Origin: an uncultured Acidimicrobiia bacterium
Lineage (GTDB): Bacteria > Actinomycetota > Acidimicrobiia > Spongiisociales > ZC4RG35
DNA: 64,000 nucleotides
Assembly: GCA_963790345.1 (NCBI GenBank)
Contig: CAWBOD010000006.1
Span: 23,573 to 87,572, forward strand
Direction: 5' to 3'
Part shown: piece after piece, positions 6,374 to 53,531 of the stretch
Layout of the letters: every line of letters starts with the position of its first letter
Position numbering within the stretch: the first letter of the stretch is position 1
Made by a program: the position numbers and the translations under genes
Notes under the pieces: model-generated
Told to the model about the DNA's origin: nothing
Seen by the model: only the letters and a program-made list of their open reading frames with translations
Database searches by the model: none

Positions 6374-7634
<1,261 letters not shown>

Positions 7635-7648
7635 CTTGCGCTGCCCTC

Positions 7649-8275
<627 letters not shown>

Positions 8276-15590: not shown

Positions 15591-17129
15591 ATGAATCGTT
15601 GCAAGTGGTGGTTGCTCGCGGGTTCGACAACCTTCGCGCTCTTGACGACACCGGCGCTTGCTTCAGAGCTTCCCGACGACTGGCGCGATGAGGTAACGGA
15701 TTACGTGAACGGGGCGTTGGAGGACATCGACGCTCCCGGTGCCGCGATCGTGATCGTCGACGGTGATGAGGTCTTGTTCGCCGAGGGTTTCGGAGTCGAC
15801 GGACCGGGTGGGGATCCGGTGACTCCAGAAACGCCGTTTCATCTGGCCTCGGTGAGCAAAGCCATCACCGGGCTTGCGGTCATGCAACTGGTGGAGGCAG
15901 GAGCGTTGGATCTTGACACTCCGCTGGGAAGGTCCAGCCTCGGGCTCGGTTGGGAGGATCTTCCGGCGTCTGAAGTAACGGTCAGCAACCTTCTGTCCCA
16001 CACCAGCGGGTGGAGTGAATACGACGGCCTGGTCAATCGTGTCGGTCCTGATTCCAGGACCCAGGCCCTGGAGGCGAACGCTCAGCGGATCGCCGCCACC
16101 CCGCTGAGCCATTCGATCGGAGAATTCGAGTACTCCAACGCCAACTACGACGTTTTGGGCTATCTCGTCGAGCGGGCCTCCGGAACAACCTACGCCGACT
16201 ATCTGCAGGCCAATGTCTTCGCTCCGTTGGCCATGACCCACTCCTTCGCCAACGAAGCCGAGGCGGCTGGGGCCGGTGTCGCCGAGGGTCACTATCCCTT
16301 CTTCGGGATGAGGAGCACTCACCCGTTGCGGTTCGTTCCGGGCAGCCTTCCTTCTGCATTTCTCACCTCGAGCGCCTCGGACCTGGGCAATTTCCTCATC
16401 GCATATCTCAATGAAGGCCGTTTCGGTGCAGCCGCGGTCCTCTCACCCACAGGAATGGCAACCCTGCAAAGGCCGATAACCAATCCCAGCGGGGCCTGGG
16501 ATGGTTACGCGATGGGCTGGTGGGTCTTTCCGTTCTGGAGCGCGGGTGCGCTCACGGATGGGGACGGAGGCCCGGTGGCATATGACGTCCCCGTCATCCT
16601 GGAGCATGAAGGCGACCACGAGTCGTACGCCTCTTCGATCCTGCTGATTCCCGAACAGAAGCTGGGTGTCGTCGTTCTGCTCAACATCAACGACGAATCG
16701 GCTCCGGCGCGGTACCACCAGATGCATTTTGGGATCGCCAGCATCCTCCTCGGGGTTGATCCGCAATCGTTCGGTTCTGAGGATCCGATCCGGCGGAATG
16801 CCAAGGTCCTGGCTCTGCTATTCGTCGGACTCGTACTTCTCCGTGCTGGTTTGTCGGCCAGAAGACTGAGCCGCATGACTGCGTCACGTGGTCGTTATGG
16901 GGTCGTTCGCGACCTCGTCATTCCGCTAGTGATCGACTTCGTCCTGATCGGCGGTGTGTGGTGGTTTCTCTCCACCGAGTCGGGCGTTCCTCTGACCCTT
17001 GTTCGCCAATCGACCCCCGACATCGTGCTGGCCGCTGCGGTTGCCACCGTGGTCGTCGCCGTCTGGGCGATTGTCCGTTCCTTACGAGTCGGGCGTGCCC
17101 TCGGGCGGTTTCGGTCAGAGACCACCTAG
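15591..17129 (+). CDS. Serine hydrolase, beta-lactamase/transpeptidase-like family, with C-terminal TM segments
   Basis: Signal peptide. SxxK motif in FHLASVSKAITGLAVMQLVEAG. 512 aa with hydrophobic C-terminal helices. Confidence 0.8.
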   Translation: MNRCKWWLLAGSTTFALLTTPALASELPDDWRDEVTDYVNGALEDIDAPGAAIVIVDGDEVLFAEGFGVDGPGGDPVTPETPFHLASVSKAITGLAVMQLVEAGALDLDTPLGRSSLGLGWEDLPASEVTVSNLLSHTSGWSEYDGLVNRVGPDSRTQALEANAQRIAATPLSHSIGEFEYSNANYDVLGYLVERASGTTYADYLQANVFAPLAMTHSFANEAEAAGAGVAEGHYPFFGMRSTHPLRFVPGSLPSAFLTSSASDLGNFLIAYLNEGRFGAAAVLSPTGMATLQRPITNPSGAWDGYAMGWWVFPFWSAGALTDGDGGPVAYDVPVILEHEGDHESYASSILLIPEQKLGVVVLLNINDESAPARYHQMHFGIASILLGVDPQSFGSEDPIRRNAKVLALLFVGLVLLRAGLSARRLSRMTASRGRYGVVRDLVIPLVIDFVLIGGVWWFLSTESGVPLTLVRQSTPDIVLAAAVATVVVAVWAIVRSLRVGRALGRFRSETT

Positions 17130-17236
17130 CCCGGATCGCGTCCTGCGGGGCCCCAAGTCCGTCGGTGTCTCAACCTGTTGGAGTTTGATCAACGGTTTAC
17201 GGTGGGCGTCGACTTTGCCAACCCGCAAGGTGGGTC

Positions 17237-18449
17237 GTGACGATATCCATTGACCATGACGTCCGGCTGGTGCTGGCCTCGCAATCCGCTCGAGCACTCG
17301 GCTATGGATTCGGATCCGTGTTGCTTGCCTCGACGCTGGCGAGCCGGGGCCTTTCATCCATCAACGTCGGCACGGTTTTGGGTGCGCTGCTGGCCGGAAC
17401 GGTCGTTGCTCAGTTGGCGATCGGCCGCTGGGCAGATAGATGGGGGCGGCGTCGCAGCTATCAATTGATGTATCTACTACTCGGTGTGGCCGGTCTGGCC
17501 TTTGCCAGCGCCGCCCCACTCTGGGTTCTCGTGGTAGTGGCGCTGACCGGTGCCCTGTCCGCCGAAGTGATCGAATCCGGGCCGTTCACGACGCTGGAAC
17601 TGTCAATGTTGTCAGGGCGGCTCAACGCCAACGCCCTGGCCACCGGATTCGGTTGGTACAACGCCATCGCCACCGCCGCCGGGTCTCTCGGTGCGCTCGC
17701 CGCCGCTCTCCCGCAAATGGCGAGGTTGGCGTGGGACGGGGCTCCTTCAGACCGGGCCTGGTTCTTGCTCCTCGTCCCGATCGCGGCGACCGGGGTTGTC
17801 CTGGCCCGTCGATTGAGCCCGATGGTGGAAGTGACAGGAGCCGTACGAGCCGCCGCGCCCCTTGGTAGGTCACGTCCGGTTGTGACCCGCCTCGCCTCTC
17901 TGTTCGCCTTGGACTCGTTCGCCGGCGGGTTTGTCGTTCAGACGTTCGTCGCCTTCTGGCTCATCGAACGATTCGACGCCACCACGGCGAACGTCGCCGC
18001 TCTCTTCGCCACCATCGGAGTCATCCAGACCCTCTCGTTCCTGGCAGCACCGTTGATCGCCCGTCGATGGGGGCTGCTCAACACCATGGTCTTCACTCAT
18101 CTCCCCTCCAACCTGCTACTGGCCGCCGTCGCCTTCGCTCCTAATCTTCCTGTCGCCGCCGGATTCCTCCTGGCCCGGTCAGCTCTCTCCCAAATGGATG
18201 TTCCGACTCGTCAGGCACTACGTCATGACTCTGGTCCAACCGGCCGAGAGGACCGCGGCCGTTGCCTACACGAACACCGCCAAATACATCGTCCGGCCCA
18301 TCGGTCCGTTGATTGCGGGAGCTGCCATCACTGTTACCGCCGGGGCTCCATTCATCATCGCCGGCGTGATCAAGAGCATCTACGACCTCGTCCTGTGGGC
18401 TTGGTTTCGAACCGTTCCTCTCGCCATCCCCGAGGAGAGCACCGAATAA
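17237..18449 (+). CDS. MFS transporter (frame change near 18200)
   Basis: 12-TM-like pattern with GRWADRWGRRRS MFS signature loop. C-terminal segment continues in frame 18198-18449. Confidence 0.75.
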
Positions 18450-18510
18450 TTGATCTCATGGGCCCGAAACCGACGGGGAGGCGGTGGCCACGGCTGATCC
18501 CAGGAAGGAC

Positions 18511-19161
18511 TCAGGGCAGGCTCGGGCCGCTCACCGCCTCGAGAACCCGCTCGAACAGGGTTGGCCAGGGTCGAGCCGGCAAGGCCGGAAGGCCCTGTCG
18601 TCTGCACTCTCCCTGCAACCATTGGCCCTGAAGCCAGCTCACACGGGCCCGCTTGGTTTGGACACCCATCCCCGGTTCCCGCTCGCTGAAGTTGTGCAGG
18701 ATCTGGGCCTCGTCGGGCTCGTAGAGGAACACCGCCCTGACCCGCCCGTCATTGGGCTCGCCGGAGAATGAGGTTTGGGCCGCCAGCCCCGGAGTGACAA
18801 AGTCACCCTCGAGCACGATCGGCTCCCTGCTCTCGAGATGATCGGCGATGACGGCCTCCAGACCGGGGGCCATGGCCCGGGCCACCTCGAGCCCTTGACG
18901 CATGATTTCTTCGGCCGAGAGTTGATCGGGATCGGGGTGGGTTCGCCAAAAGTGGATAGCGGGTTGCTGCTCCGGTGTCGTCATCCGTTCGAGGAGGACC
19001 TGGAAGTCATCGATCGCGCTATGTCCGATCGCGAAGTGTCGAGCCAATCGGGAAGCGATCTTGGTCTTGCCAGTTCCCGAGGCGCCACCGATGATCAACA
19101 CGTCCCACGACCGGTCCCGGTCTGCCGCCAGGCGACCCACCTGCCCACGATAGGACACCAC
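18511..19161 (-). CDS. P-loop NTPase / kinase (AAA_33-like)
   Basis: Walker A IIGGASGTGKTKIASRLARHF. Confidence 0.6.
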   Translation of the reverse strand: MVSYRGQVGRLAADRDRSWDVLIIGGASGTGKTKIASRLARHFAIGHSAIDDFQVLLERMTTPEQQPAIHFWRTHPDPDQLSAEEIMRQGLEVARAMAPGLEAVIADHLESREPIVLEGDFVTPGLAAQTSFSGEPNDGRVRAVFLYEPDEAQILHNFSEREPGMGVQTKRARVSWLQGQWLQGECRRQGLPALPARPWPTLFERVLEAVSGPSLP

Positions 19162-19945: not shown

Positions 19946-20632
19946 ATGTATCAGGTGTCAACAGCCGGCGCTCTCGTGGAAGGGGTGTCCCAGGGCGCCA
20001 TCTCGGTCGGCACTGTCCGTGAGCATGGGGACTTTGGCCTCGGCACCTTCGAGGACCTCGATGGGGAAATGGTGATACTCGACGGGAAGGTCTATCGGGT
20101 GGCGTCGGATGGTTCGGTGAACGAGGTGGACGACAGTGCCCTCACCCCTTTTGCGGTAGCGACCCGTTTCGAAGCCGCCCCAGCGGTGACCATCACGGCG
20201 AGCAACATGGCGGCCCTGACCGCAGCGATCGACGGGCTCCGAGAGTCCAGCAACGTATTCTTCGCCGTACGGGTCGACGGGGTGTTCGATCAGATGAGAG
20301 TGCGTGTGGTCTGTCGAACCGCCCCCGGAGTGAGGCTGGTCGAGGCCACTTCGAATCAAGTCGAACTCGACCTGGGTCCGATCAGCGGCACCTTGGTCGG
20401 GTTCTGGTCGCCGCCCTACGCCTCTGGCCTTGAGGTGGCGGGCTACCACTTCCACTTCCTGACCGATGACCGAGCGGTCGGAGGCCATGTGCTCGACTGC
20501 GGGGGTCGTGACCTGCAGGCCCAAATCCAACTTGAAGGATCGGTTCATGTTGCGCTGCCGGACAATCGTGCGTTCCTGACCGCCGACCTGCTGAGTGACC
20601 CGACTGCTGACCTGGAGCGGGCAGAGCACTGA
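19946..20632 (+). CDS. budA: Alpha-acetolactate decarboxylase (possible N-terminal RHH extension from 19811)
   Basis: MYQVSTAGALVEGV...HGDFGLGTFEDLDGEMVILDGKVYR...GYHFHFLTDDRAVGGHVLD matches ALDC. In-frame upstream MRELTVALEETIWEALEERAASSGATVGHLVNLALSEFL resembles a ribbon-helix-helix domain. Confidence 0.8.
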   Translation: MYQVSTAGALVEGVSQGAISVGTVREHGDFGLGTFEDLDGEMVILDGKVYRVASDGSVNEVDDSALTPFAVATRFEAAPAVTITASNMAALTAAIDGLRESSNVFFAVRVDGVFDQMRVRVVCRTAPGVRLVEATSNQVELDLGPISGTLVGFWSPPYASGLEVAGYHFHFLTDDRAVGGHVLDCGGRDLQAQIQLEGSVHVALPDNRAFLTADLLSDPTADLERAEH

Positions 20633-20786
20633 ACCCGCCCGTCAGCGATTCTCGCCGCCTGTCGTCTCCGGAATCCGGTCCACAACTCAAAGCATCGAGC
20701 CGGAACCATCGAGGATCGGACCGCTGAAGAATCGTAGGCTCTTCCCCCCATGAGGCCTCTGGCAGCCGACGGGAACCGATAGGGAT

Positions 20787-23700
20787 GTGGAGTTGCGGAG
20801 CAAGCGTCCATCGAAGGAAGACGTGCATGCCGATCATTCAGTGACCCACCGTGGCGGAATCGCTCGGAGGGCCGGGATTCGGGCCGGGGAAGGACGTCTG
20901 GTCGGCTGGGTCGCGACTCTGTTCGCGGTAACTCAAGCGAGCCATGGATTGGGGGCGACCACAGCCGACACCCTTTTCTTGTCACGTTTCGGAGTCGAAT
21001 TTCTTCCGGTGATGATTCTGGCCTCGGGTCCCGCGGTCATGTTCGCCACCGTCTTCTACATGGCAGGGATGCGCCGGTTGGGGGCGGCGCGATGGCTGGC
21101 TCCGACTCTGCTTTCACTCGCCGGATGGGTGGCCCTGGAGAGGCTGGCCGTCGCCGTTCGGATGCCGGGCGCTTATCCATTGATCTGGCTGGGGGCCCAG
21201 GTCGCAATTCTGGTCTCCTACACCGTGGTGTGGAACGCCGCCGGCGAAGTATGTACCACCCGCCAGGCCAAACGACTCTTCCCGATCTTCGCTTCTGCCG
21301 GCATCGCCGGGGCGATAGCGGGCAACGGCGTAGCGGGAACATTGACCGCTGCGCTGGGGACCGAGAATCTTCTGATCGTCCACGCCGGCCTTCTGGCAGG
21401 CGCCGCCGCCATCATGGCCACTCGGGTGAGACCGTTCATGAAGGCCTTCGAGACCAGCCTCCACTCGTCGATCTTCTCCGATCTTCGTGCCGGCCTTGAT
21501 CTCACCCGGACCAATCCCCTCCTGCGGCTGCTGGCGTGGCTAGCGATCGCCCTCAATGTTTTGTTCTTTCTCGTCGTTTTTCGCTTCAACGAGACCATCG
21601 CCACTTCATTTGGAACGGAAGCGGAGCTGGCGAGCTTCATCGGGACCTTCGCGGCGGTGGCCACTGTTGCCACCCTCGCCACGGCTCTTTTCGGTGCCGG
21701 TCCCCTGTTCAGGCAAATCGGAGTGGTCGGCACGTTGCTCATCGTTCCCGCGGTCTATCTCTTCGGCTTCGGACTGTGGTCGGTTTCATTCGGCTTGGTC
21801 ACGGCCACGCTGGTTCGGGGCGCGCAATGGGTAGCCGTCAACGCCCTGGGAGGCACTGCCTTGAGTTCCATGTTCAACGTGATCCCGGGCAAGCGCCGAA
21901 GCCAGGCGGCGACTTTCAACGCCGCCATTCCCACCCAGATCGGAACCACGATTGCCGGAGCTCTTCTGGTATTCGACTCCTCCATACCGGAACCGGGGCT
22001 CATCGTCATCGGCCTCGGGTTGTCAGTCTGGGCCCTGGCCCTCGGGGTCCGCATGCGGCATGCCTACACCGATGCTTTGGTCAGAGCCGTTCACACCGGG
22101 ATCGAGGTATTTTCGGCTCCGACCCCCGGAGTCCAAAAGCCCACCCTCGACGCCGATGCTCACGAGGCCTTGTCGACCGCCCTCTCCGATCCCAGTCCAG
22201 GAAGACGGGCGATCGCCGCCACCCTGCTGGGAAGGCTCGAATCCGACGGAAGAGAGCACTGGCCCCGAGCGCTGGCCGATGAGGATCCACAGGGTCCGCG
22301 CGGCCGCCCTTCATGCGATTTCGGATCGGCCCGAAGCAGTCGACATAGCGCGAGACCTGCTCGCTGATCCGGTTGCAAATGTCCGACGACGAGCAGTGGA
22401 AATCCTCGAGAAGCACGGGGACTCGATCAGCTCCTCGTCCGAGTCGTTGGTCGATCCCGACCCGGTGGTTCGTGCTTCAGCTGCGATTCTCACCGACCCG
22501 GACACCGGTGGCCGAATCCTGGACTCGATGCTGAGCTCGACGGACCAGGCGATGGTGCTGGCCGCCCTGGAGGCATTGGCTCACCGGCCAACACTCGTCG
22601 ATGATGATGTTGCCCGGTTCGTCACACACCCGGATCGCCAGGTACGGGCTGCGGCCGCCAGATGCCTGATCGGACGGACCGACCATATCGACACTTTGCT
22701 TTCTCTGCTCGATGACCCTTCGATCCGGGTGCGAAATGCTGCCGCTGACACCCTGGCAGCCCATCCCGATACGGTCGACGCCCTCGTTGAATTGCTGTCG
22801 CACGGCTCGGTCCGCGCCTGCGACGCAGCCTTGCAAGCTCTCGCCGAACGCGGGCTGGGAGGAGATCGATGCAGGGAGTGGATCTCGGGCGAGGTGGCCA
22901 GAGCACGGTACCTGCGCCTTCATCGGATGGTCCTGCTCGTCGGCTCCCCGACCGAAACCGTCGGCTACCTGGCCCGCCTGCTGCGATCCCGCGAGCATCG
23001 GCTGGAGCGGTGGGCATTGATGGCACTCACCGTCGCTGAGACCGAGAACGTGATTCCCGTGTTGAAACGTGCCATCTGGGCCGACGACCCCGAGATGAGC
23101 GCCCAGGCGCTGGAGGCCCTCGACTCGCTCGCCTCCCACTCCCTCGTCAGGCCTTTGATCGCACTGCTCGAGGACGATTCGACGCCCTCCAACGATGATC
23201 CCGAACAGACATTGCGGATTCTGGCCAACGACACGGATGACTGGATTCGGGCGCTGTCGATCCGAGCCTTGATGGAAGGGGACTATCCCCATCAGGACCA
23301 ATTACGAACCCGCTGGGCGACGGATTCGTCCCCCCTGGTAAGAGCGGTTATGTCAAGATCGACCAACCGAATGAACGAGACCGAAACCTTCGACACCGTT
23401 GACCGGGTATTGGCCCTGCAACGCGCCTCCATCTTCTCCGAGATCGACCCCGAAGACCTCGAGCGAATCGCCGTCGCCGCCATCGAACGCCGATATCACC
23501 CTGAGGAGACCATCTACAGATACGGAGAGGAAGGTAAGGAATTGCTCGTCGTTGTCTCCGGCGACGTGGAGGTACGGCGCCCGAATGGTCAAGCGATACG
23601 AACCTTCGGTGCCGGCGAACACGTTGGAGAATTGGCCCTCCTCGGACGCAGAACCCGGGCGGCCGATGTCATCGCCGGCCCCGCTGGGGTACACGTCCTT

Positions 23701-23799
23701 GCCTTGGAGGCAGCCGAGTTCGAAGTGATTCTGGAAGAGCGGCCTACCGTCGCCATGGCCATGCTGGCCACGTTGGCCGACCGGATGGGAACGATGTGA
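20787..23799 (+). CDS. TLC/MFS-like transporter fused to HEAT-repeat domain and C-terminal cyclic-nucleotide-binding domain (one frame change near 22270)
   Basis: N-terminal about 480 aa polytopic membrane domain resembling the ATP/ADP-translocase (TLC) fold. PBS-lyase HEAT-like repeats (DPDPVVRASAA, DPSIRVRNAAADTLA, DDPEMSAQALEAL). C-terminal cNMP-binding beta-barrel (LLVVVSGDVEV...FGAGEHVGELALLGRRTRAADVIA). Confidence 0.75.
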
Positions 23800-23889
23800 T
23801 GGACGGACCTGTGGCACTTCGCTCTGCAACTGGTCGGGGATAGTCGATATCGATCCGACCCGAAAAGTGCCATCGCCCGCTGCGTGCTT

Positions 23890-24507
23890 CTAGTCGGCCG
23901 CGTACTCCCCCAGCATTCCCGCCAGGGCTCGAAGCGCCAGGGCTCGATGCGACATCGTGGCCTTGGCCTCGGGGCCGATCTCGGCCAGGGTGACGCCACC
24001 CACCTCGAAGATGGGGTCGTAGCCGAAGCCGAAGGTACCGCGGGCCGCGAGGGCAATGGTCCCCTCGAGGCGACCCTCGGCAACTAGCTCGGAACCATCA
24101 GGCCACACCAGGGCGACCACCGAGCGGAAGGTGGCCCGCCGGTCCTCCACCCCGTCTAGCAACACCAGCATCTTCTCGACGTTTTCCGCATAGGAGGCTT
24201 GCGGTCCAGCGAAGCGAGCCGTGTGGACTCCCGGATCGCCGCCGAGTGCAACCACCTCGAGGCCGGTGTCATCGGCCAGCGCCGGCAGTCCGGTCGCGCT
24301 CGCTACGGCGCGGGCCTTTAGCAAAGCATTCCCTTCGAGTGTGGCTTCGGTCTCGTGAACATCGTCCCAGGACAGTCCCGTGACGATCTCATCGACCAGG
24401 CGTTCCCGCACCAGGACCGACTCGATCTCGATGATCTTGTCTGGGTTTTTCGACGCCACCACCAATCGGGGGATGCGAGCCAGTCGGGGTGACGGCGATG
24501 CGCTCAA
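23890..24507 (-). CDS. rdgB: Non-canonical purine NTP pyrophosphatase RdgB/HAM1
   Basis: VVASKNPDKIIEIESVL...FGYDPIFEVGG...MSHRALALRAL. Confidence 0.85.
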   Translation of the reverse strand: MSASPSPRLARIPRLVVASKNPDKIIEIESVLVRERLVDEIVTGLSWDDVHETEATLEGNALLKARAVASATGLPALADDTGLEVVALGGDPGVHTARFAGPQASYAENVEKMLVLLDGVEDRRATFRSVVALVWPDGSELVAEGRLEGTIALAARGTFGFGYDPIFEVGGVTLAEIGPEAKATMSHRALALRALAGMLGEYAAD

Positions 24508-28907: not shown

Positions 28908-30856
28908 GTGGCAGAGTTCCGCTGGCGCCAGTTGGCTGATTCCCAGGACGGTCTGTTCGAGACCAGCCGGCGCGTGGTCGGTAGGGGCGAGTACCGGGGG
29001 CTGACCTTCCACGAGATCGAGGCCAGGTCGATCATCACGAAGTCCCCACCGGGGACTCCCTGGTTCGGATACTCGATCAACGCCTACAGGGGATGCAGTC
29101 ATGCGTGCAGTCTATTGCCTTGTAGGAGAGACCCCAATCCTCATGGCCAACGGTCGGACGAAACCGATAGCAAAGATCAGACCCGGCGACCGCGTGTACG
29201 GAACCAGACGCGAAGGCAACTACCGCCGATTTGTCGAAGCCGAGGTCCTCGATCATTGGGCGACTGTCAAACCCGCCTATCGAGTCCTCGCGGGTCGAGG
29301 CACTGTCTTGGTTGCCAGCGGTGACCACAGATTCCTGACAGACCGTGGCTGGAAACACGTGACCGGAAGCCAGCAAGGACCCGACCAACGCCCCCACCTG
29401 ACGATCAATAACAGACTCCTGGGTCTGGGTCCTACTGGATCACCCCCAAAACACGACGAGGACTTTCGACGCGGATATCTGTGCGGAATGATCCGCGGTG
29501 ATGGCACGGTGGGGACCTACTCATACCCTCGGCCCGGGAGAACGTCGGTCCTCGTTCACCGATTCCGTGTTGCCCTTGTGGACGGAGAAGCCCTGGAACG
29601 CACCAGAACGTTCCTTCGGGACCTGGGCGTCGAGACAAAAGCGTTTCTGTACTCCCAACCAACCGAGACGCATCGAGAATTGCGCGCGATCCGAACGTCG
29701 CGCAAAGCGGACATTGACCTGATCCGAGCAACGATTGAGTGGCCCGACGAGGCGTCGGAAGGATGGGGACGGGGTTTCCTGGCTGGGATTTTTGACGCCG
29801 AAGGAAGCCACAGCGAACACGTTCTCAGATTCTCCAATGCAGACAAGACAATTCTGACGGTCGATATCAGATCAGCTCGATCGCTTGGGATTCGATTCGG
29901 TGATCGAACCCGAGCGTGGTCAATCCCGGGTCAGAACAGTGCGTATCAGAGGCGGAATGAGTGAACACCTCCGGTTCTTCCTGACAGTCGATCCCGCAAT
30001 TACTCGAAAACGAAGCCTCCTTGGAACAGCGTTGAAAGCGAACTCGGGCATGACCGTGACGTCCGTCGAACCCTTGGGTTTCGACGTTCCGATGTACGAC
30101 ATCACGACAACGACGGGAGACTTCATCGCGAACGGAGTCGTCAGTCACAACTGCTTCGCTCGGCCGACCCATGACTACCTCGGCTTCAATATGGGCAACG
30201 ACTTCGATACGCAGATAGTCGTCAAAACCAACGCGGTCGACCTGGTTAGAGCTGAGACGATGCCGGGACGCTGGCCCGGCGACTCCATCGCCATGGGTAC
30301 CAACACCGATCCCTATCAGGCCGCGGAGGGCAAATACAAACTGACCCGGGGAATAGTCGAGGTGCTGGTCGAACGCAGCAACCCTTTCTCAATCCTGACC
30401 AAGTCGCCTCTGGTGCTGCGCGACATCGCTCTCATCACCGAGGCTTCGAAGAGAGCCGAGGTGTCCGTTTCCTTTTCCGTGGCGACGGTGGACGAAGACG
30501 TGTGGCGTCGGACCGAGCCGGGCGCCCCGCATCCACGAAAGCGACTCGAGGCGCTGGCCAAGCTCCGAGCGGCGGGTATCAGCGGCGGCGTGATGATGGC
30601 GCCGATTCTTCCGGGCATCTCCGACCGGCCTGATCAGATCGCAGCGGTCAAGCAGGCTGCACGAGAAGCCGGGGCGGAGTCGTGGCATCCGGTGAAGTTG
30701 CACCTGCGTGGGATGAGACAGCACTTTCTCGACTGGCTCAAGGAGGATTCGCCCCAGTTGGTCGAGCGATATGAAGAGATGTATCCGGAACGCCGCCCCA
30801 AGCCCCGGCAGCGAAGATCAGAAACCCCGGACCGCGACCAGCTGAGTCTCCTCTAA
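28908..30856 (+). CDS. Radical SAM protein (Rv2578c/SplB 'DNA repair photolyase'-like) interrupted by an intein; extein and intein segments lie in shifted frames
   Basis: N-extein ...FHEIEARSIITKSPPGTPWFGYSINAYRGCSHAC(VY). C-extein CFARPTHDYLGFNMGNDFDTQIVVKTNAV... continues to 30856. Predicted spliced junction CSHACVYCFARP recreates the canonical CxxxCxxC motif. Confidence 0.8.
29116..30151 (+). mobile_element. Intein with LAGLIDADG homing-endonuclease domain
   Basis: Begins CLVGETPILMANGRTKPIAKIRPGDRVYG (Hint block A). Two LAGLIDADG motifs: YLCGMIRGDG and FLAGIFDAEGS. Ends ...GDFIANGVVSHN followed by the Cys +1 extein residue. Confidence 0.8.
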
Positions 30857-45050: not shown

Positions 45051-45773
45051 ATGACGAACTTACCGTCAATTTCGGTCGTCCTCCCCGCATACCAATTGGG
45101 ATCGGTGATCGCCGCCAACATCGAACGAGTCGCCTCGGTTCTTTCCACGATGTCGGTGGAACTGGTCGTAGTGGATGATGGAAGCACCGACCAGACGCTG
45201 TCCGAGGCCCTTCGGGCCACCCTCGACATGCCCGGAGCTTCGGTCCTCAGCCATCCGGTCAACCGCGGGAAAGGGCAGGCTTTGTTCACCGGCTCCAGAG
45301 CCGCCAAAGGCGACCTGATCGTCTTTCTCGACGCGGATCTCGACCTCCCCCCCGAGCAGCTGCCTGCACTGTTGGAGGGGATGGGAGATGCCGATGTGCT
45401 GGTCGGCGCCAAGCGCGACTCGATGTCGGCGGGCCGCTACCCCCTCATCAGGCGTCTGTTGAGCAGGCTGTTTTCGTTCGCGACCGTTGGCGTGTTCGGG
45501 CTGACGGTCACCGAAACCCAGACCGGTCTGAAGATCTTCCGGAGAGAGGTGCTCGACCTCGTTATTCCACAGATGCGGATCGACGGGTATGCCTACGACC
45601 TCGAGATGCTGGTTCGCGCCCAGCGAGCCGGGTTCAAGCTGGCCCAAACACCCGTCGAGTTGGGACCGGGCGCCTCGACGGCTTCGTTGCGGGGCGGCAT
45701 GCTCTGGCAAATGGCCCGCGACACGGCTCGACTGCAATGGTGGGTTTGGACCGGCCGGGTACCCAAGCCCTAG
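45051..45773 (+). CDS. Family 2 glycosyltransferase (polyprenol-phosphate mannose/glucose synthase-like)
   Basis: ISVVLPAYQ...VVVDDGSTDQT...FLDADLD GT2 motifs. Confidence 0.8.
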   Translation: MTNLPSISVVLPAYQLGSVIAANIERVASVLSTMSVELVVVDDGSTDQTLSEALRATLDMPGASVLSHPVNRGKGQALFTGSRAAKGDLIVFLDADLDLPPEQLPALLEGMGDADVLVGAKRDSMSAGRYPLIRRLLSRLFSFATVGVFGLTVTETQTGLKIFRREVLDLVIPQMRIDGYAYDLEMLVRAQRAGFKLAQTPVELGPGASTASLRGGMLWQMARDTARLQWWVWTGRVPKP

Positions 45774-48151
45774 CTCGCCCCGCCGGCCGAGTCGACCTTT
45801 GCCATGCCTCGTCGCTCCAGCGCCGGGCGCCGGCCCAGGCGGCCCGAGACAGCCCCACCGGCCGCCACCAGCAGCCCGCCGATAGTCAGAAACCGACCAA
45901 GGGTTTCGACACCTCCATTGGCGAATTCCAGGGTTACCCGTTCCTGGGTCGGGACCACGATCATCAGAGACGGCCCGGCATGGAACGGTCCCTCGGCTCC
46001 GGTGGCCCGCCAGTTCGGAAAGTAGGACACTTTGACCAGGTGGGGCACGCCGATCGCGTCCGTCCTAAAGGAGATCTCATTGTCCTCGATCACCACGTCG
46101 GTGATCGTGGCCCGGGCGCCGGGCAACGAGTCCATGCCCCGGAGCTGGCTGAGATCGGTGATTCTCGGCCAATCCGCGGGTCCATCGGTGGTGATCCAAT
46201 GGTCCAGCAGATCCATCGACCCGTACCACTCGAGCGAAGTCTCCTCAAAGGTCGCGGCCTGTTCCCCGGGCCCGATGCCGACAATTCCCCCGACACGGGC
46301 GAGGAGACTGTTGTGGGGGCCTTCGTAGACGGCGGGTTGGAAGGTCGCAGCCTCGACGAGGGGTGAGTCGGCGACCTCGTAGAACGTGAAGGGGCCGGTG
46401 GCGGTCACTTCGGTGAGCTCGGGCCACTTGTCGGCTTCTTCCTTGGCTTCGGGGGTGTACGTCACGTAGTACTGGACTCCGAAGACCTGCAGATGACGAA
46501 TCCCGCGTTCGAAATCGAAACGGTGATAGTCCAAACCCGGGATGGGACTCGAAGGGTTGACGCTCATTTCGGCCTGGTTGAGGAAATGGAACGGCGTCGA
46601 GAGAGAGGACTCGAAGAAAAGGCCTTCCATCGAGCCGAAACCTTCCCGAGTCCAGAACGGAAACAACATCAACGCCATGGGTGATCCGAACTCGTTCATC
46701 GACTTGTCGTACTCCCAGTGAATGCGACCAGGTTCCAACTCGCTCTCGGTGGTGGCCATCAACGCTTGATACTCGGGCCATCGGGGTTTGCCCTCGTAAC
46801 CGGTGTAGTTCCATCGAGCCCACCCGTTCATGATCGTGATGCCGGCCACAGCTCCCAGAGCCAGGATCCCGGCACCGCTCATGGAGAGGAACACCTTCGA
46901 GTCGACCGACTTGATCCACAGCATCGAGACCATCAGAGCCCCGACCAGGGCCACCGCGAAAGCCCATACCACCCTGTTGGGAACATTGGGCTCCCTCGCC
47001 AACAACACCACGGCCACGATTCCCGCGGTCGTTCCGGCCACCCTGGGCAGGACTCCCGAAACTCGGGCCGGGAGGCGCCGCGCCAGCCACATCACTGTTC
47101 CTCCGAGGGCGATCGCCGCGAAGAACGTGACTCCGAAATACCAGAAGGGCAGCAGGCGTCCGTTCCACAGCTTCCACCGCGCGTTGAATATCCCTGGAAG
47201 CAGGTCCGGGAGAACGTTGGGCAACGGGTAGTAAATAACGGGTAACAGGGTGAGGGCCAGCACCGGCAGCGCCCGCGGGGTGCGCTTCCAGGTCCAGACC
47301 GCGCCCGCGACCGCCGGGATCAGCAGCAGCCAAATCTCGAGCGGGAACAGCTGGTCCCAGCTCGACAGCGGGACCCACGCCATGTCGGAGCTGAACCCGA
47401 GCCTGGCCAGCAGAGGCAGGACCCAGAATCCACTGATGGCGAGGCCACCCGCCCAGATCGGCAGAGCCCGTCTCCAAGCGCCCTTCCAGGTGAGCACTGT
47501 GAGGCTGGCCGTGACGATGACAATGATGGTGATGATGTGACACAAGACGGCTGCCGCCAGAGCGAGTGCTGCCGGGACCTGATACTTGGGATCGTCGCGC
47601 ACTGCTCTTATCAAGAGCCCCAGGTAGAGGAGCGAGAGCGCCAGCGACCATGAGAACGAGAACTCCCCTGCCAGGGTCGACAGGACGTTGCCGCCGTAAA
47701 TGGTGAAGCTCTCCATGAAGAGAAACGCAGCACCGGCACCGGCCGCGACCGTCGCTACCGGCCTCCCAAATCGCAGGCTGCGGGCCAGGAAGTACACGGC
47801 CGGCGGGGTCGCCAGCAGGCCGAGAGCCGTGGCGATCTTGAACGCCACGCCGTAGGGAAGGAGCACATCGAGAAGGACGATGACGAGTGAGGGAAGCGGA
47901 AAGTAGAAATAGAAAACCGGGTAGCCGGCGAACCAGTCCTGCGACCAGCCGAGGATGCGCCCTTGCGGCAGCAAGACGTCGCGGAGATAAGCGGGGACTG
48001 CGACGTGGGCGGCCATGTCACCCCCCGACGGGGTGTTGGCCGCCAGGATCAACCTGGGGTTGAGGACCATCAGAATGACAAACGAGATCGCCGCGAGCAC
48101 CGCCAGAGGGACCCAGCGTCTAAAAGTCGGGAGGGTGCTCCCTGATTGCAT
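45770..48151 (-). CDS. Large polytopic membrane protein, putative GT-C-type glycosyltransferase
   Basis: 793 aa: about 14 TM N-terminal half and a large soluble C-terminal domain. Converges on the GT2 gene and sits in the mannose-activation cluster. Confidence 0.55.
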   Translation of the reverse strand: MQSGSTLPTFRRWVPLAVLAAISFVILMVLNPRLILAANTPSGGDMAAHVAVPAYLRDVLLPQGRILGWSQDWFAGYPVFYFYFPLPSLVIVLLDVLLPYGVAFKIATALGLLATPPAVYFLARSLRFGRPVATVAAGAGAAFLFMESFTIYGGNVLSTLAGEFSFSWSLALSLLYLGLLIRAVRDDPKYQVPAALALAAAVLCHIITIIVIVTASLTVLTWKGAWRRALPIWAGGLAISGFWVLPLLARLGFSSDMAWVPLSSWDQLFPLEIWLLLIPAVAGAVWTWKRTPRALPVLALTLLPVIYYPLPNVLPDLLPGIFNARWKLWNGRLLPFWYFGVTFFAAIALGGTVMWLARRLPARVSGVLPRVAGTTAGIVAVVLLAREPNVPNRVVWAFAVALVGALMVSMLWIKSVDSKVFLSMSGAGILALGAVAGITIMNGWARWNYTGYEGKPRWPEYQALMATTESELEPGRIHWEYDKSMNEFGSPMALMLFPFWTREGFGSMEGLFFESSLSTPFHFLNQAEMSVNPSSPIPGLDYHRFDFERGIRHLQVFGVQYYVTYTPEAKEEADKWPELTEVTATGPFTFYEVADSPLVEAATFQPAVYEGPHNSLLARVGGIVGIGPGEQAATFEETSLEWYGSMDLLDHWITTDGPADWPRITDLSQLRGMDSLPGARATITDVVIEDNEISFRTDAIGVPHLVKVSYFPNWRATGAEGPFHAGPSLMIVVPTQERVTLEFANGGVETLGRFLTIGGLLVAAGGAVSGRLGRRPALERRGMAKVDSAGGAS

Positions 48152-49384: not shown

Positions 49385-50649
49385 TCGAGGGGCACGGCCG
49401 CTGACAGCCCGATCGAGGTCCCACTGAGAACGCCGTAGAAAACGACAACGTCGCCATCGGCCGACACCTCGATCCCACCACCTCGGGCGCCGGGCACGAA
49501 GACTCCGGTCGTCATTCCTGCGGGCAGCTGGGCGGTTTGAACGGCGGAGATGCCGAGCCGTTTGATCGTCGCCGTAAGAGCCTGGCCTGACGTGTTCAGG
49601 ATCCAGACGGTCGTCTGGCCCTCGGTGAGGACAGCCGAGACGGGGATCGACCAGCTCGACGCCTCCCGGGCCAGTCCCGGCGCCACCGCCCGGACCTCCT
49701 CGAATGAGTAGACCATCGCCGCCGACAGAGGTTCCACCGCTGACACGATGAGGCCGGATCCCGGCCCGGCGACAGTCTCCACCGGCAGGACCGACATGGT
49801 TTGCGCAACGATGACCCCTTCAGCCACCCCTTCGACCACCCCATCAGGTTGGATTCGATCCACCCGGTAGGCGGTGTCGACGTCGGCCATCGATCTGAGG
49901 TGGATTTCACCATCGAATCCGAAATCGGGAAGGGCAAAGAACCATTGAGTGCTGGGGACCACCGCCTCCGAGGTGGCAACGTCGCTAGGGCCGGAGCGCT
50001 TCATCCCTGCCACCACTAGCCCGGAATCGGCAACGATCGCAAAGCTCAGACTCTGCCTCCCGGCCATGGATTGGCCGAGCCCCACCTCGACCGAGGTGGC
50101 GGGAGGTATCGCCATCTCTTCGAGGTCGGTCGGGGTGTCGACGCCGAACTCGCTGGCCCCGATCAATCGCACAGACGCCTCGGAGGCGAACGGGTTGACC
50201 AGGACCATCGTGGAACTATCACCTTCCGCCGTTGACATCCCCATGACCGCGACCGGGCCGGTGGCCGCCGGTACGCAGCCCGATACCGCAGCAACGGTCC
50301 CCGCCCGGCTATAGGTTGCTGCGGCTCCCCGCGACTCGACCAGGATCGGTGTCGTCCCCAGTTCGGCTAACTCACCGACCTCCATGACGAAGGTGCCATC
50401 TGCGTTTGGAAGGTGCTCGACCGTTCTTCCACCGACCACCGTGATGCTGCCCCCTTCTGGGCTTGCGACCCCTAGTCGAGAGGAGAAACCGCCTCCTGCT
50501 TCCGCGACCGGGCAAACGACATATGGGTCCGAATCGATGGGGGGAAGCCCGACTGGATCCGGTTCCGGCTTCGGTGGCAGAAGCAACCCGAAGACCGCCA
50601 GGCCGGCGGCAGCCATGATCATGGCCCAACGGGCGGCAGTACCAGTCAC
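49381..50649 (-). CDS. DUF5719-like secreted/membrane-anchored protein
   Basis: N-terminal TM/signal. Ala/Gly/Val-rich beta-rich body. Placement between GT2 fusion and DUF3499 as in other actinobacteria. Confidence 0.5.
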   Translation of the reverse strand: MTGTAARWAMIMAAAGLAVFGLLLPPKPEPDPVGLPPIDSDPYVVCPVAEAGGGFSSRLGVASPEGGSITVVGGRTVEHLPNADGTFVMEVGELAELGTTPILVESRGAAATYSRAGTVAAVSGCVPAATGPVAVMGMSTAEGDSSTMVLVNPFASEASVRLIGASEFGVDTPTDLEEMAIPPATSVEVGLGQSMAGRQSLSFAIVADSGLVVAGMKRSGPSDVATSEAVVPSTQWFFALPDFGFDGEIHLRSMADVDTAYRVDRIQPDGVVEGVAEGVIVAQTMSVLPVETVAGPGSGLIVSAVEPLSAAMVYSFEEVRAVAPGLAREASSWSIPVSAVLTEGQTTVWILNTSGQALTATIKRLGISAVQTAQLPAGMTTGVFVPGARGGGIEVSADGDVVVFYGVLSGTSIGLSAAVPLE

Positions 50650-53531
50650 GTGCGCGCCTCGACCTGATCCGGTCCGTTTTCGCCGGCCTCTTCAGCCACC
50701 GGAGGGCGGTCCTCTACCTGACCTTTGCGGTCGGTGCCGGCCGGTGTCTGTGGTCGCGGATTCCTGGTCCCCCATGCGACGAGAATCAAGAGGACCACGA
50801 ACAACGACCCTGAGGCCAGACCGGCCACCCTCAGCAGCTGGACGGGCGTGAAGACGACCTCTCCCGCTTCGCCCGAGACCGAATTGGCCCAACCATCGGC
50901 CGCTCTCGCCCAGTCCGGTCCCCACCGGGCATCGGCATTGTCGGCCAGTCGGACCCTGCTTTCGGTGGGAGCACCTCGGTAGCGCTGGCCGTCCCACTCC
51001 CAAACTGTTCCGTCCACCGTCAAGGCTCGGGCAGATTCGGTCAGGTTCTCGTACACGATCACTTCGGGGTCGACCGGCGTCAGGGAAAGATCCACCTGGC
51101 GATCCAGCGCCTGCAGGTCGAGGCCGGTTCCAGGCAGGACCACCACCCAGCCAATTCCGAATTCGGCCAGAGCCGCCCCCGGCCGGAGATTTACCCCTCG
51201 AATCAGGTGATCGATGATGACCCTCTCCAACTCGACGTCGCCGACGGCGACGTCGGGTAGATACGCCTGGTCGAGGGTGACGGCGCTCCCGTCGATCAAT
51301 CTGTAAGCGACCGGACCGAGAGAGCGACTGGCGCCTGGCAGGTCGGCGGGGGGCCCGATCAGTAAAACGCGGGTCGAGGTGGGGAATTCGGCGAGGGTGG
51401 TCACGAAGCCGAGGCGATCGGACCACTGGTTTGGGGGCAGGCCGGCGCGGCCTCCGGCGGCCGTGACGACCGCAGGCACGAGGAACAAAGCCACGGACAA
51501 CATCGCCACGAGTCGGCGCCAGGTGGGACCTTCGGCGACCTCGACCACCATCGCGGTTACCAGGGCCCCTCCGACCGATGCGGCGAGCAAGCCGATCATC
51601 CCCCATCCGGTCAGGATCCCCGGGGAGGACGCCAGCAGCCACCCCCCGATTGCCAACGACGCCCCGAACGCCAGGGAACCCAGGCGGGTCTTACCGATCC
51701 ACAGCGCTCCCACCCCGACCGCCGCCACCACCGAGACTGGCCAGAGCCACCCGGGTTCGATCCTCGGCATCGGCGAGGCGGTCAGAAGCGGCCAGAGATT
51801 GCCTGCGGCCACGAACGGAGCCACGAGCCCGAGGCCGAGCGAGGTCACTGCTAGGCCGGTAACAACCGCAAACCAGCGCCGGGTGAAAACGGCCCAGAGG
51901 ACCGCGGCAATCGGAACCAGCACGATCGCTGGTGGATAACTGATCGCCACCAAACCGGCCGCGAGACCACCCCGGCCGTATCGGCCCAGCCGGCGCCGCC
52001 AATCCCCACTCGTCGGGGCCAGGACCGCATCGAGCACCCACGGCAAGGGCCCGGCCGCCAGCAACAACGGCCATTGTCCGGCACCGAACAGGGCCGCCGA
52101 GGTGGCACCCGCCAGATATACCCAGGCGGCAATATGCCCGGCGCCGCTCGAAGCCCCGGCCCGTCGGGCCAGTCTGATGGTTCCCGCCAGGGCCCCCACC
52201 ACGGCGCCGACGGTCAGCAGAGTGGCCGCGATCTCGGGCCGGCCTCCGACCAACAGGTTGACTAGAGCTCCCAGGCCGGCAATTGGCGGAGCGGGGGCTG
52301 GACTCCCGAGCCCGGACGCATTCCAACCCCCTCCGTAGGATGCCGCGAGGCCACCGAGACTGTCGGCCGGAGGCAGGCTGAATCCGGCCACTGGAGTCCC
52401 CGCGAACCAGATCTCGCGGGTAGCGAGGGCGATTCCCAGGCCCGAGAGCGACACCAGGATGGCGGTAGGTTTGGTCCAGGCATGGACGGTTCGCCCTGCC
52501 AGAGAGTCAGGCTCTTCTTCATCTATGGCCCGGCTGAAGCGCTCCCCCAACTCTGACATTGTTCTTCGCAAACGGACCGAGCCCGCGACCTGGAACCTGA
52601 ACAATTCTTCGTCTCCAACCTGACGCACCCGGTTGAGGGCTCGTCGGGCCAAAAAGGTGGAAGGAAGCTTCCCCACGTTCCAGACCCAGCCGAAGACGGT
52701 CGCCAGCAAAGGCCGTAATCGCCCCAGGAGTAGCTGGCCGACCCCATCGGCGAGCCCGGCAAGGAACCCAGTTGGCACGACCCATGCGAGGGTTATCGGT
52801 TTGTAGGCGATCAGCATGGCCCGTTGCCGGCCTGCCTGTTGCAGCCATCCGGGCTGGTGATCCGGACAATCGAGCGGGTGGAATACCTCCGACGACGGCA
52901 CGACGATTACTCGACCGCCGGCCAGCCGGGCGCGCTGGGACAGATCGAGTCCGGCGGCGTCGAGGGACAACTCGGGGTCGAGACCCCTCAGTCCACTCAG
53001 GAGGTCCCGCCGAACCAGCATCGAAATCGGGGAAACGAACGCCACCTCACGAACCACGTCGTACTGCTCGAGATCCAGTTCCTCGGGGTCCAGCCCCGAG
53101 TAGGGCTCACCGAACACGTCCGTCGCTTCGCCCACGGAGTCGAGGAGATCGTCCGATCCCTCGATCAGAACCTTGGAGCCGGCGACCGAAGCGTCGTGGC
53201 GTCGGGTTTCTCGCAAAAGGGCGAGCAAGGCATCTGGACGCGGCCGGGTGTCCCCGTGGATCAGCCACACGAACTGGATTCTGTCCTCCAACCGGTCGAG
53301 GATCTGACCGACGTGATCCAGATGGACTATCGGGTCGGAGGATTCCGGATCAGATGACTCTTCGCCGCCAATCTGGAGCACCTGAGCAGGCACGTAGACT
53401 TGCCGCGAGACGGCTGCCAATGTCTCGTCCAGTCGGCGTCGTGGTGCGGACAGCACTACAACTGCCACGGCGGGAACGCCGGGAGACATGGCGGGAGAAG
53501 GAGCTACCGGAAGACCCGGCCGGCTGGTCAT
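50646..53531 (-). CDS. Glycosyltransferase family 2 domain fused to a very large polytopic membrane domain
   Basis: N-terminal GT2 (VAVVVLSAPRRRLDETLAAVSRQ...) followed by about 20 predicted TM helices. 961 aa. Confidence 0.75.
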   Translation of the reverse strand: MTSRPGLPVAPSPAMSPGVPAVAVVVLSAPRRRLDETLAAVSRQVYVPAQVLQIGGEESSDPESSDPIVHLDHVGQILDRLEDRIQFVWLIHGDTRPRPDALLALLRETRRHDASVAGSKVLIEGSDDLLDSVGEATDVFGEPYSGLDPEELDLEQYDVVREVAFVSPISMLVRRDLLSGLRGLDPELSLDAAGLDLSQRARLAGGRVIVVPSSEVFHPLDCPDHQPGWLQQAGRQRAMLIAYKPITLAWVVPTGFLAGLADGVGQLLLGRLRPLLATVFGWVWNVGKLPSTFLARRALNRVRQVGDEELFRFQVAGSVRLRRTMSELGERFSRAIDEEEPDSLAGRTVHAWTKPTAILVSLSGLGIALATREIWFAGTPVAGFSLPPADSLGGLAASYGGGWNASGLGSPAPAPPIAGLGALVNLLVGGRPEIAATLLTVGAVVGALAGTIRLARRAGASSGAGHIAAWVYLAGATSAALFGAGQWPLLLAAGPLPWVLDAVLAPTSGDWRRRLGRYGRGGLAAGLVAISYPPAIVLVPIAAVLWAVFTRRWFAVVTGLAVTSLGLGLVAPFVAAGNLWPLLTASPMPRIEPGWLWPVSVVAAVGVGALWIGKTRLGSLAFGASLAIGGWLLASSPGILTGWGMIGLLAASVGGALVTAMVVEVAEGPTWRRLVAMLSVALFLVPAVVTAAGGRAGLPPNQWSDRLGFVTTLAEFPTSTRVLLIGPPADLPGASRSLGPVAYRLIDGSAVTLDQAYLPDVAVGDVELERVIIDHLIRGVNLRPGAALAEFGIGWVVVLPGTGLDLQALDRQVDLSLTPVDPEVIVYENLTESARALTVDGTVWEWDGQRYRGAPTESRVRLADNADARWGPDWARAADGWANSVSGEAGEVVFTPVQLLRVAGLASGSLFVVLLILVAWGTRNPRPQTPAGTDRKGQVEDRPPVAEEAGENGPDQVEART

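Follow-up and report, generated by a model that had tools for sequence, protein, structure and literature searches.

Does the window, the 64,000-nucleotide stretch of contig CAWBOD010000006.1 from an uncultured Acidimicrobiia bacterium that was analysed here, encode a transporter under the control of a cyclic nucleotide, and is the gene for it intact? The question arises from two overlapping long open reading frames (ORFs) on the forward strand, at 20787–22367 (526 aa) and 21952–23799 (615 aa, frame +1), which an earlier note on this DNA had read as a single frameshifted gene. When one base is removed at 22290, the two become one ORF of 1003 aa (window 20787–23799, + strand), whose product has an NTT-like domain of 12 transmembrane (TM) helices, HEAT repeats directly C-terminal to it and a domain of the cyclic-nucleotide-binding type (cNBD) in the same polypeptide. 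These are the features that define the NTT-HEAT-cNBD family, and it is highly probable that the locus encodes one inner-membrane protein of this family. Our reading of the locus as a whole, that this family protein carries out transport of a nucleotide-like solute that is switched by a cyclic nucleotide monophosphate (cNMP), and that the split in its gene is an artefact, has in our estimate a probability of about 0.6.

Domain architecture and family relationships

The AlphaFold2 (AF2) model of the repaired full-length sequence, built on a 44-sequence alignment, had a mean predicted local distance difference test (pLDDT) score of 83.4 and a predicted template modelling (pTM) score of 0.67. It comprised 12 TM helices (residues 36–436), a disordered linker (440–453), a helical solenoid (456–859) and a beta-barrel with flanking helices (870–1002). 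Together with the Pfam assignments, the model bears out the domain order proposed in the earlier note, a protein of about 1000 aa that runs from a TLC/MFS-like transporter through HEAT repeats to a cNMP-binding domain, and the two peptides quoted there were found in the translation (FLSRFGVEFLPVMIL at residues 64–78 and FGAGEHVGELALLGRRTRAADVIA at 941–964). The 12 helices expected of the N-terminal transporter were also recovered, but over a shorter extent than the 'about 480 aa' assigned to it. The GTG start at 20787 is uncertain, as pLDDT stays under 50 for residues 1–23 and the starts of most relatives fall near residue 27–38. The TM helices number 12 and the N-terminus is basic, so that under an MFS topology both the solenoid and the cNBD would be expected in the cytoplasm.

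Pfam scores above cut-off and the AF2 model agree on the PBS-lyase/HEAT-like repeats and the C-terminal cNMP-binding beta-barrel that had been recognised from the sequence. HEAT_2 scored 81.7–91 bits, far above its cut-off, and HEAT 34–44 bits; the matches of the solenoid in the PDB were alphaRep and HEAT proteins, and helical repeats are seen in the model. The cNMP_binding family (PF00027) scored 56–57 bits, likewise far above cut-off, and in the PDB the cNBD aligned along its length with the ligand-binding domains of PKG, PKA-R, MloK1 and CRP, with E-values down to 2e-21. Its phosphate-binding cassette reads GELALL....RAAD, conforms to the pattern G-E-L-A-L-x4-5-R-[AST]-A and aligns with the cassettes of PKG and PKA. 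The conserved Glu (E948) and Arg (R957) of this pattern show no change in any of the 44 relatives (39–95% identity), the set on which the statements about invariance within the family are based. In CAP and PKA, these two residues contact the ribose and the cyclic phosphate. Judged by its sequence, the cNBD should still bind ligand. The residue after the cassette Arg is Ala, as in PKA; domains selective for cyclic GMP (cGMP) typically have Thr or Ser at this position, and the Ala may be taken as weak evidence for cyclic AMP (cAMP) over cGMP.

NTT-type transporters are usually read as a hallmark of energy parasitism. The NTT-HEAT-cNBD branch comprises thousands of sequence clusters and is widespread in free-living bacteria. 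The N-domain alone retrieved 8530 representatives at 50% clustering, mostly of 950–1040 aa among the best 150; a database clustered at 90% gave 317 matches to the family, of which dozens are intact, with lengths of ~950–1020 aa; and a scan of GTDB species-representative genomes returned 479 stretches that encode a relative, chiefly in Acidimicrobiia, Nitriliruptorales and Chloroflexota. Relatives carry the cNBD in one intact ORF with the NTT-like domain.

Fusions of the NTT-HEAT and NTT-HEAT-cNBD types were described in 2017 by Major, Embley and Williams (Genome Biol Evol, PMC5381601), in whose account they form one monophyletic clade, mostly bacterial, with a wide distribution and of unknown function; these authors speculated that cAMP might tune ATP uptake. 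Later papers merely cite the description, and our literature search found no functional study of the family, in keeping with the earlier note's remark that the architecture is present in databases and functionally uncharacterised. The protein encoded here resembles the published fusions in its NTT-like domain, HEAT repeats (PF13646/PF02985) and cNBD (PF00027), in their order and in its length of ~1000 aa. The published set differs in that it contained one actinobacterial sequence only, an unfused revertant, and in that adjacent cyclase genes were not reported; the clade found here (Acidimicrobiia/Nitriliruptoria-like) is, unlike that set, divergent enough for Pfam TLC to fall below its cut-off. 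The locus is a divergent member of a known, uncharacterised family; the three-domain architecture has already been published, and the adjacency of cyclase genes in relatives is the new point.

Finding the ancestry of the membrane domain required a truncated N-domain profile, since a full-length profile search was flooded by HEAT and cNBD matches; a PDB search with the single sequence did not detect the transporter domain. Run against the PDB, the N-domain profile matched one family only, AtNTT1 (9j3j, E = 5.5e-7), and hhalign against canonical NTT fragments gave a probability of 88% (E = 3e-6, 215 columns). Among the top 50 Foldseek matches, the best ones to the transporter domain were AtNTT1 (9j3l/9j3m, TMt 0.65–0.67) and Chlamydia pneumoniae NTT1 (CpNTT1, 0.63). 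At the TM4–TM5 junction, WNAAGEVCTTRQAKRLFPIFA aligns with the canonical signature W.FAN.ITT..EAK.FYPLFG, the invariant family motif WNAAGEVCTTRQAKRLFP aligns with the canonical WGFANQITTVDEAKKFYP, and a ...TTRQAKRLFP... signature is common to the family and the NTTs; within it QAKRL.P (Q160, A161, K162, R163, L164 and P166) is invariant among the relatives. Because the search for canonical NTTs, seeded with an AtNTT1 fragment, returned only fragments of up to 357 aa, the comparison of residues with the canonical proteins is confined to TM4–TM10.

Profiles and modelled fold together make a solid case that the membrane domain is a distant, divergent relative of the NTT/TLC transporters, with a relationship at the family level that is remote. 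Like the canonical members (AtNTT1, Chlamydia Npt1/NTT1 and Rickettsia Tlc1; PF03219, TIGR00769; PDB 9j3j–9j3n), it has a 12-TM MFS-type fold (TMt 0.63–0.67), significant remote profile similarity and the TM4–TM5 signature (E/Q)AK(K/R)(F/L)(Y/F)PLF. It differs from them in its low identity (~15–19%), in a membrane domain of ~400 rather than ~500 aa, in a cytoplasmic regulatory tail of 570 aa, which is lacking in canonical NTTs, and in its occurrence in free-living bacteria.

Several results speak against a nucleotide substrate. Pfam TLC (PF03219), for which the cut-off is 21, reached 19.4 bits with the first ORF and 16.6 bits with the repaired protein. NCBIfam AAA (TIGR00769) reached 20.1 bits where 387 are required, so that both curated thresholds were missed. 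Of the three Pfam families that the earlier note had named, HEAT_2 and cNMP_binding were therefore found far above cut-off but TLC below it, and the claimed TLC resemblance stands at the level of the family, where TLC matches 28 of the 44 relatives (best E 2.5e-7) and the profile and fold point to AtNTT1, but not for this sequence taken alone. The canonical TM7 signature LVEVTWKSKLK, whose E, W, K and K are invariant in 18 canonical sequences, is not conserved in this protein: the region aligns as FLVVF(P/R)F(S/N)E.., with hydrophobic replacements in place of the charged residues. Invariant charged residues inside the TM helices or at their ends are few (D61, E118 and R344 among them), and several Gln, Asn, Trp and Tyr residues are invariant as well. 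Because TLC falls below cut-off and the TM7 signature is not conserved, ATP/ADP translocase function cannot be assumed, and the substrate may be something other than ATP/ADP, or no nucleotide at all. We hold a nucleotide substrate only tentatively, at somewhat less than even odds.

One alternative is a cNMP-regulated MFS transporter of a non-nucleotide solute, whose resemblance to NTTs would reflect shared MFS ancestry only. The sub-threshold TLC score and the absence of the charged TM7 residues (E, K, K) would fit such a protein, as would MFS_1 matches in 5 of the 44 relatives and a number of invariant TM charges that is small for the binding of a tri-phosphate. Against this, AtNTT1 was the sole PDB family reached by the N-domain profile, it and CpNTT1 were the best structural matches of the transporter domain in the top 50, the distinctive motif W..A.E....(E/Q)AK(R/K)(F/L)(Y/F)PLF is held in common with the NTTs, and TLC matches far more relatives than MFS_1 does (28 versus 5 of 44). 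On balance we consider a non-nucleotide MFS transporter unlikely.

Cyclase genes beside relatives and a possible cNMP switch

The most useful lead to function comes from the genes next to relatives. In two distant relatives on long contigs, L002 and L003, a gene for a TPR protein with a class III cyclase homology domain (CHD) lies immediately adjacent: in L002 it is upstream and divergent, in L003 downstream and on the same strand. These two cyclase genes encode orthologues that share 43% identity along their full length. Among 82 non-redundant loci, 44 have a CHD at most 5 kb from the gene and one more has it at 5–10 kb, a zone that served as an internal control. Where at least 2.5 kb of flank was available on both sides, a CHD lay within 2.5 kb in 26 of 53 loci. 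The earlier note had suggested a check for adjacent adenylate cyclase genes elsewhere in the genome; these counts are for the relatives, and in the window itself no cyclase was found.

The partners are of two types, one with TPR repeats and a C-terminal CHD (~650 aa, 27 loci, gaps of 60–190 bp, three orientations), the other with an N-terminal CHD and an AAA_16 STAND module (22 loci, upstream on the same strand). The cyclase is usually the adjacent gene, in at least three gene arrangements and in both Actinomycetota and Chloroflexota. That cyclases of two unrelated architectures adjoin the gene, in several arrangements and in two phyla, speaks for selection that has favoured adjacency more than once, and thus for a functional module; the pattern of gene neighbourhoods supports one in which signal flow would run from cyclase to cNMP to transporter. 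Mycobacterial class III cyclases of the Rv0386 type carry STAND/TPR modules, and the partner genes resemble them in combining a CHD with AAA_16 and/or TPR sensor modules. They differ in that the TPR-CHD type has its CHD at the C-terminus, with invariant Asn-to-His and Lys-to-His replacements, and in that the genes neighbour relatives, outside the window.

In the mechanism that we propose, a sensor-coupled class III cyclase, encoded next door in most relatives, would make cAMP (less likely cGMP), which would bind the C-terminal cNBD. The resulting conformational change would travel via the rigid HEAT solenoid and reach the NTT-like domain at its cytoplasmic side, where transport of a nucleotide-like solute would be switched or tuned. 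The domain identities, the intact cNMP-binding residues and the cyclase linkage in relatives are observations, whereas we infer the gating, its direction and the substrate alike; the case for gating is strengthened because class III cyclase genes often adjoin relatives, and we put cNMP gating of transport at even odds.

Other observations count against such a switch. In the TPR-CHD partners the two metal-binding Asp residues are retained, as is the transition-state Arg, and the motifs FMFTDIV, HTGDGFF and DYSG..VH.AAR are invariant (L002 5993–7903 (-), L003 11109–13085 (+) and 16 further loci), but their CHD is divergent and scores close to the Pfam cut-off or under it, and His invariably takes the place of both the catalytic Asn and the specificity Lys. 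Because of this divergence and these two replacements, both their activity and their product are uncertain. In the window, tblastn with two partner cyclases found no cyclase across the 64 kb, and Pfam scans of 20 neighbouring or large window ORFs found no cyclase domain; the closest relative, on contig L001, has no adjacent cyclase either. The literature search returned no transport or binding experiment on any family member.

A second alternative is that the protein is not primarily a transporter, and serves instead as a membrane-anchored cNMP receptor or scaffold (a 'transceptor') whose HEAT repeats recruit partners, such as the TPR region of the neighbouring cyclase, into a feedback complex. 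HEAT and TPR solenoids are classic protein–protein interaction modules, the cyclase partners always have TPR or STAND sensor domains, and adjacency is maintained in several orientations. A scaffold is harder to reconcile with the membrane domain, in which the polar TM residues D61, Q138, R344, Q347, N352 and Q384 are invariant across the 44 sequences and a complete 12-TM MFS fold is confidently modelled. Since these invariant residues and the complete fold speak for a functional substrate site and against a simple membrane anchor, we judge the scaffold decidedly unlikely. The boldest version of the switched transporter would make the transported solute itself a cyclic nucleotide, so that a cAMP-activated cAMP exporter, paired with the cyclase, would set second-messenger levels. 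An ancestry among carriers of nucleotides, the small number of conserved TM charges, as for a substrate of low charge, and the neighbouring cyclase would all fit, and we nevertheless regard this version as a long shot.

Known proteins in which a cytoplasmic C-terminal cNBD controls a membrane transport domain, the working principle proposed here, include the sperm Na+/H+ exchanger SLC9C1 and the MloK1, SthK and HCN channels, and their cNBDs align well with that described here. Their transport domain has an NhaA fold or is a six-TM channel, whereas it is of the MFS/NTT type here, and their coupling is by a C-linker or a voltage-sensor domain in place of a HEAT solenoid. SLC9C1 was rejected as a relative: it appeared among the top Foldseek matches through length artefacts, with an overall TM-score of 0.12. 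If the proposed mechanism is true, the family would be an example of prokaryotic secondary transport under allosteric control: the cNBD would act on the transporter by way of a HEAT 'lever', and a cyclase gene would complete the two-gene module. The recurrent pairing with sensor-coupled cyclase genes suggests a testable circuit, from signal to cyclase to cNMP to transporter, and the two-gene loci are tractable targets for experiments.

In one clade of relatives, a 382-aa ORF without a Pfam match lies directly 3' of the NTT-HEAT-cNBD gene (L002 10871–12019 (+), L006 5390–6538 (+) and ~5 more loci), and in L002 it overlaps the stop codon of that gene. From its position, it is a possible operon partner.

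The break in the reading frame

The earlier note had placed one frameshift near 22270; a single frameshift is indeed present, but at 22290, ~20 nt away. Deletion of any one base within 22289–22294 fuses both ORFs. The repaired junction reads ...ALADEDPRVRAAALHAISD..., a canonical HEAT_2/PBS-lyase repeat (ALADEDP(R/Q)VRAAALHAISD), and the junction-spanning peptide of the repaired protein is ...ALADEDPRVRAAAL.... Metagenomic contig L001, 93.7% identical in DNA, has the gene intact (P0001, 1003 aa, 95% aa identity), and over the 3013 nt of the gene the sole indel between the two is the one extra base in the window (GATCCACAGGGTCC versus GATCC-GAGGGTAC).

Further genes downstream are broken in the same manner. 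Comparison of L001 proteins with the window places one inserted base in each of an MBL-fold gene (split at ~25724) and a pyridoxamine-phosphate oxidase (PNPOx) gene (~26085), and a radical-SAM gene at 28908–30856 (+) requires two more one-base corrections for read-through, of which that at ~29107 was checked against L001 and that at ~29885 was deduced from a change of frame inside an intein alone. With the target gene included, this amounts to ~5 frame-breaking single-base insertions in ~8 kb, with at least two neighbouring genes broken and a third apparently so. A frame-switch scan for further frameshifts based on third-position GC content (GC3) was too insensitive for use. Genes of the region show dN/dS values of 0.01–0.13 against L001 at a dS of ~0.2, which indicates strong purifying selection, and the values in the target gene are 0.10 for the part upstream of the break and 0.13 for the part downstream, also at a dS of ~0.2.

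Because one-base insertions also break neighbouring genes, and because so many fresh pseudogenes are not expected in a genome whose genes are this constrained, an error of sequencing or assembly is the most likely source of the frameshift, as far as the sequence comparison goes. In that case, a full-length protein is probably what the organism produces. One feature argues the other way, namely that the inserted bases, at 22290 and at the three neighbouring sites checked against L001, lie outside homopolymers.

A real frameshift would mean either a recent pseudogene or a gene split in two, the first part coding for a stand-alone transporter of 526 aa whose last 26 aa are read out of frame, the second for a soluble HEAT-cNBD protein with a start of its own. 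The extra base is present in the given sequence without a homopolymer, start-like codons occur downstream in the new frame (GTG at 22396, TTG at 22447), and fusion and fission events have been reported for the family (Major et al., PMC5381601). These points are outweighed by at least two, and probably four, more one-base insertions that break neighbouring housekeeping genes within 8 kb, a rate that is implausible at the dN/dS values found; by selection that is not relaxed downstream of the break; by the position of the break inside a HEAT repeat, away from a domain boundary; and by the listed relatives, which, obvious fragments aside, all have one long ORF of ~940–1070 aa. A real frameshift is accordingly very doubtful. 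Programmed frameshifting was rejected, as neither the 94%-identical relative nor the other relatives change frame within the gene, and no Rfam element or other signal was found.

On the preferred reading, that of a sequence error, the window holds a normal member of the family, and its apparent split belongs with several other likely indel errors. Apparent pseudogenes elsewhere in this assembly should be annotated with caution, since random insertion errors seem to be present. The coordinates of the features are collected in Table 1.

Table 1. Features of the NTT-HEAT-cNBD gene in the window.
Feature	Position	Strand	Basis
Whole gene, NTT-HEAT-cNBD protein, 1003 aa after one-base repair	20787..23799	+	
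Membrane domain, residues 36–436, 12 predicted TM helices, MFS fold	20892..22094	+	AF2, Foldseek, profile, hhalign, Pfam
Family signature WNAAGEVCTTRQAKRLFPIFASAGIAGAIAGN, TM4–TM5 junction	21231..21326	+	Aligns with canonical NTT motif WGFANQITTVDEAKKFYPLFGLGAN
Linker, TM12 to solenoid; residues 440–453 with pLDDT <50	22095..22151	+	AF2 model
HEAT/PBS-lyase-like alpha-solenoid, residues 456–859, contains the frameshift	22152..23364	+	Pfam, PDB matches, model
Single extra base (C, equally an adjacent A), frame 0 to +1	22290..22290	+	Comparison with intact relative gene
cNBD, residues 870–1003, beta-barrel and C-terminal helices	23395..23796	+	Pfam, PDB matches, model
Phosphate-binding cassette GELALLGRRTRAAD	23626..23667	+	Alignment of 44 relatives

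Surroundings of the gene

The gene is flanked by an acetolactate decarboxylase gene upstream and by a convergent Ham1(RdgB)/RNase PH/MBL-fold/PNPOx block downstream. A functional linkage to these immediate neighbours was considered and found unsupported, as the same genes are not conserved next to relatives. Scans for promoters and terminators over 20500–24000 found nothing.

Gene content differs in places between the window and L001. At 17109–18522, the window holds an extra MFS_1 transporter gene (17237–18631), and L001 has an extra alpha/beta-hydrolase gene at 6612–7792, between its copy of the target gene and Ham1. Further along the window, two large ORFs at 45770–48151 (-, 793 aa) and 50646–53531 (-, 961 aa) have no Pfam match or only sub-threshold ones (weak Glyco_tranf_2_3), and adjoin an ORF with a sub-threshold DUF5719 match and sugar-nucleotide genes.

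The radical-SAM gene in which two corrections were needed (28908–30856) contains an intein of ~346 aa at 29112–30151 (CLVGETPIL...GVVSHN|C), with matches to LAGLIDADG homing endonucleases. It is inserted exactly inside the CxxxCxx|C iron-sulfur motif of the radical-SAM protein. In the 94%-identical L001 the gene is uninterrupted and lacks the intein, a presence/absence polymorphism that is consistent with recent homing.

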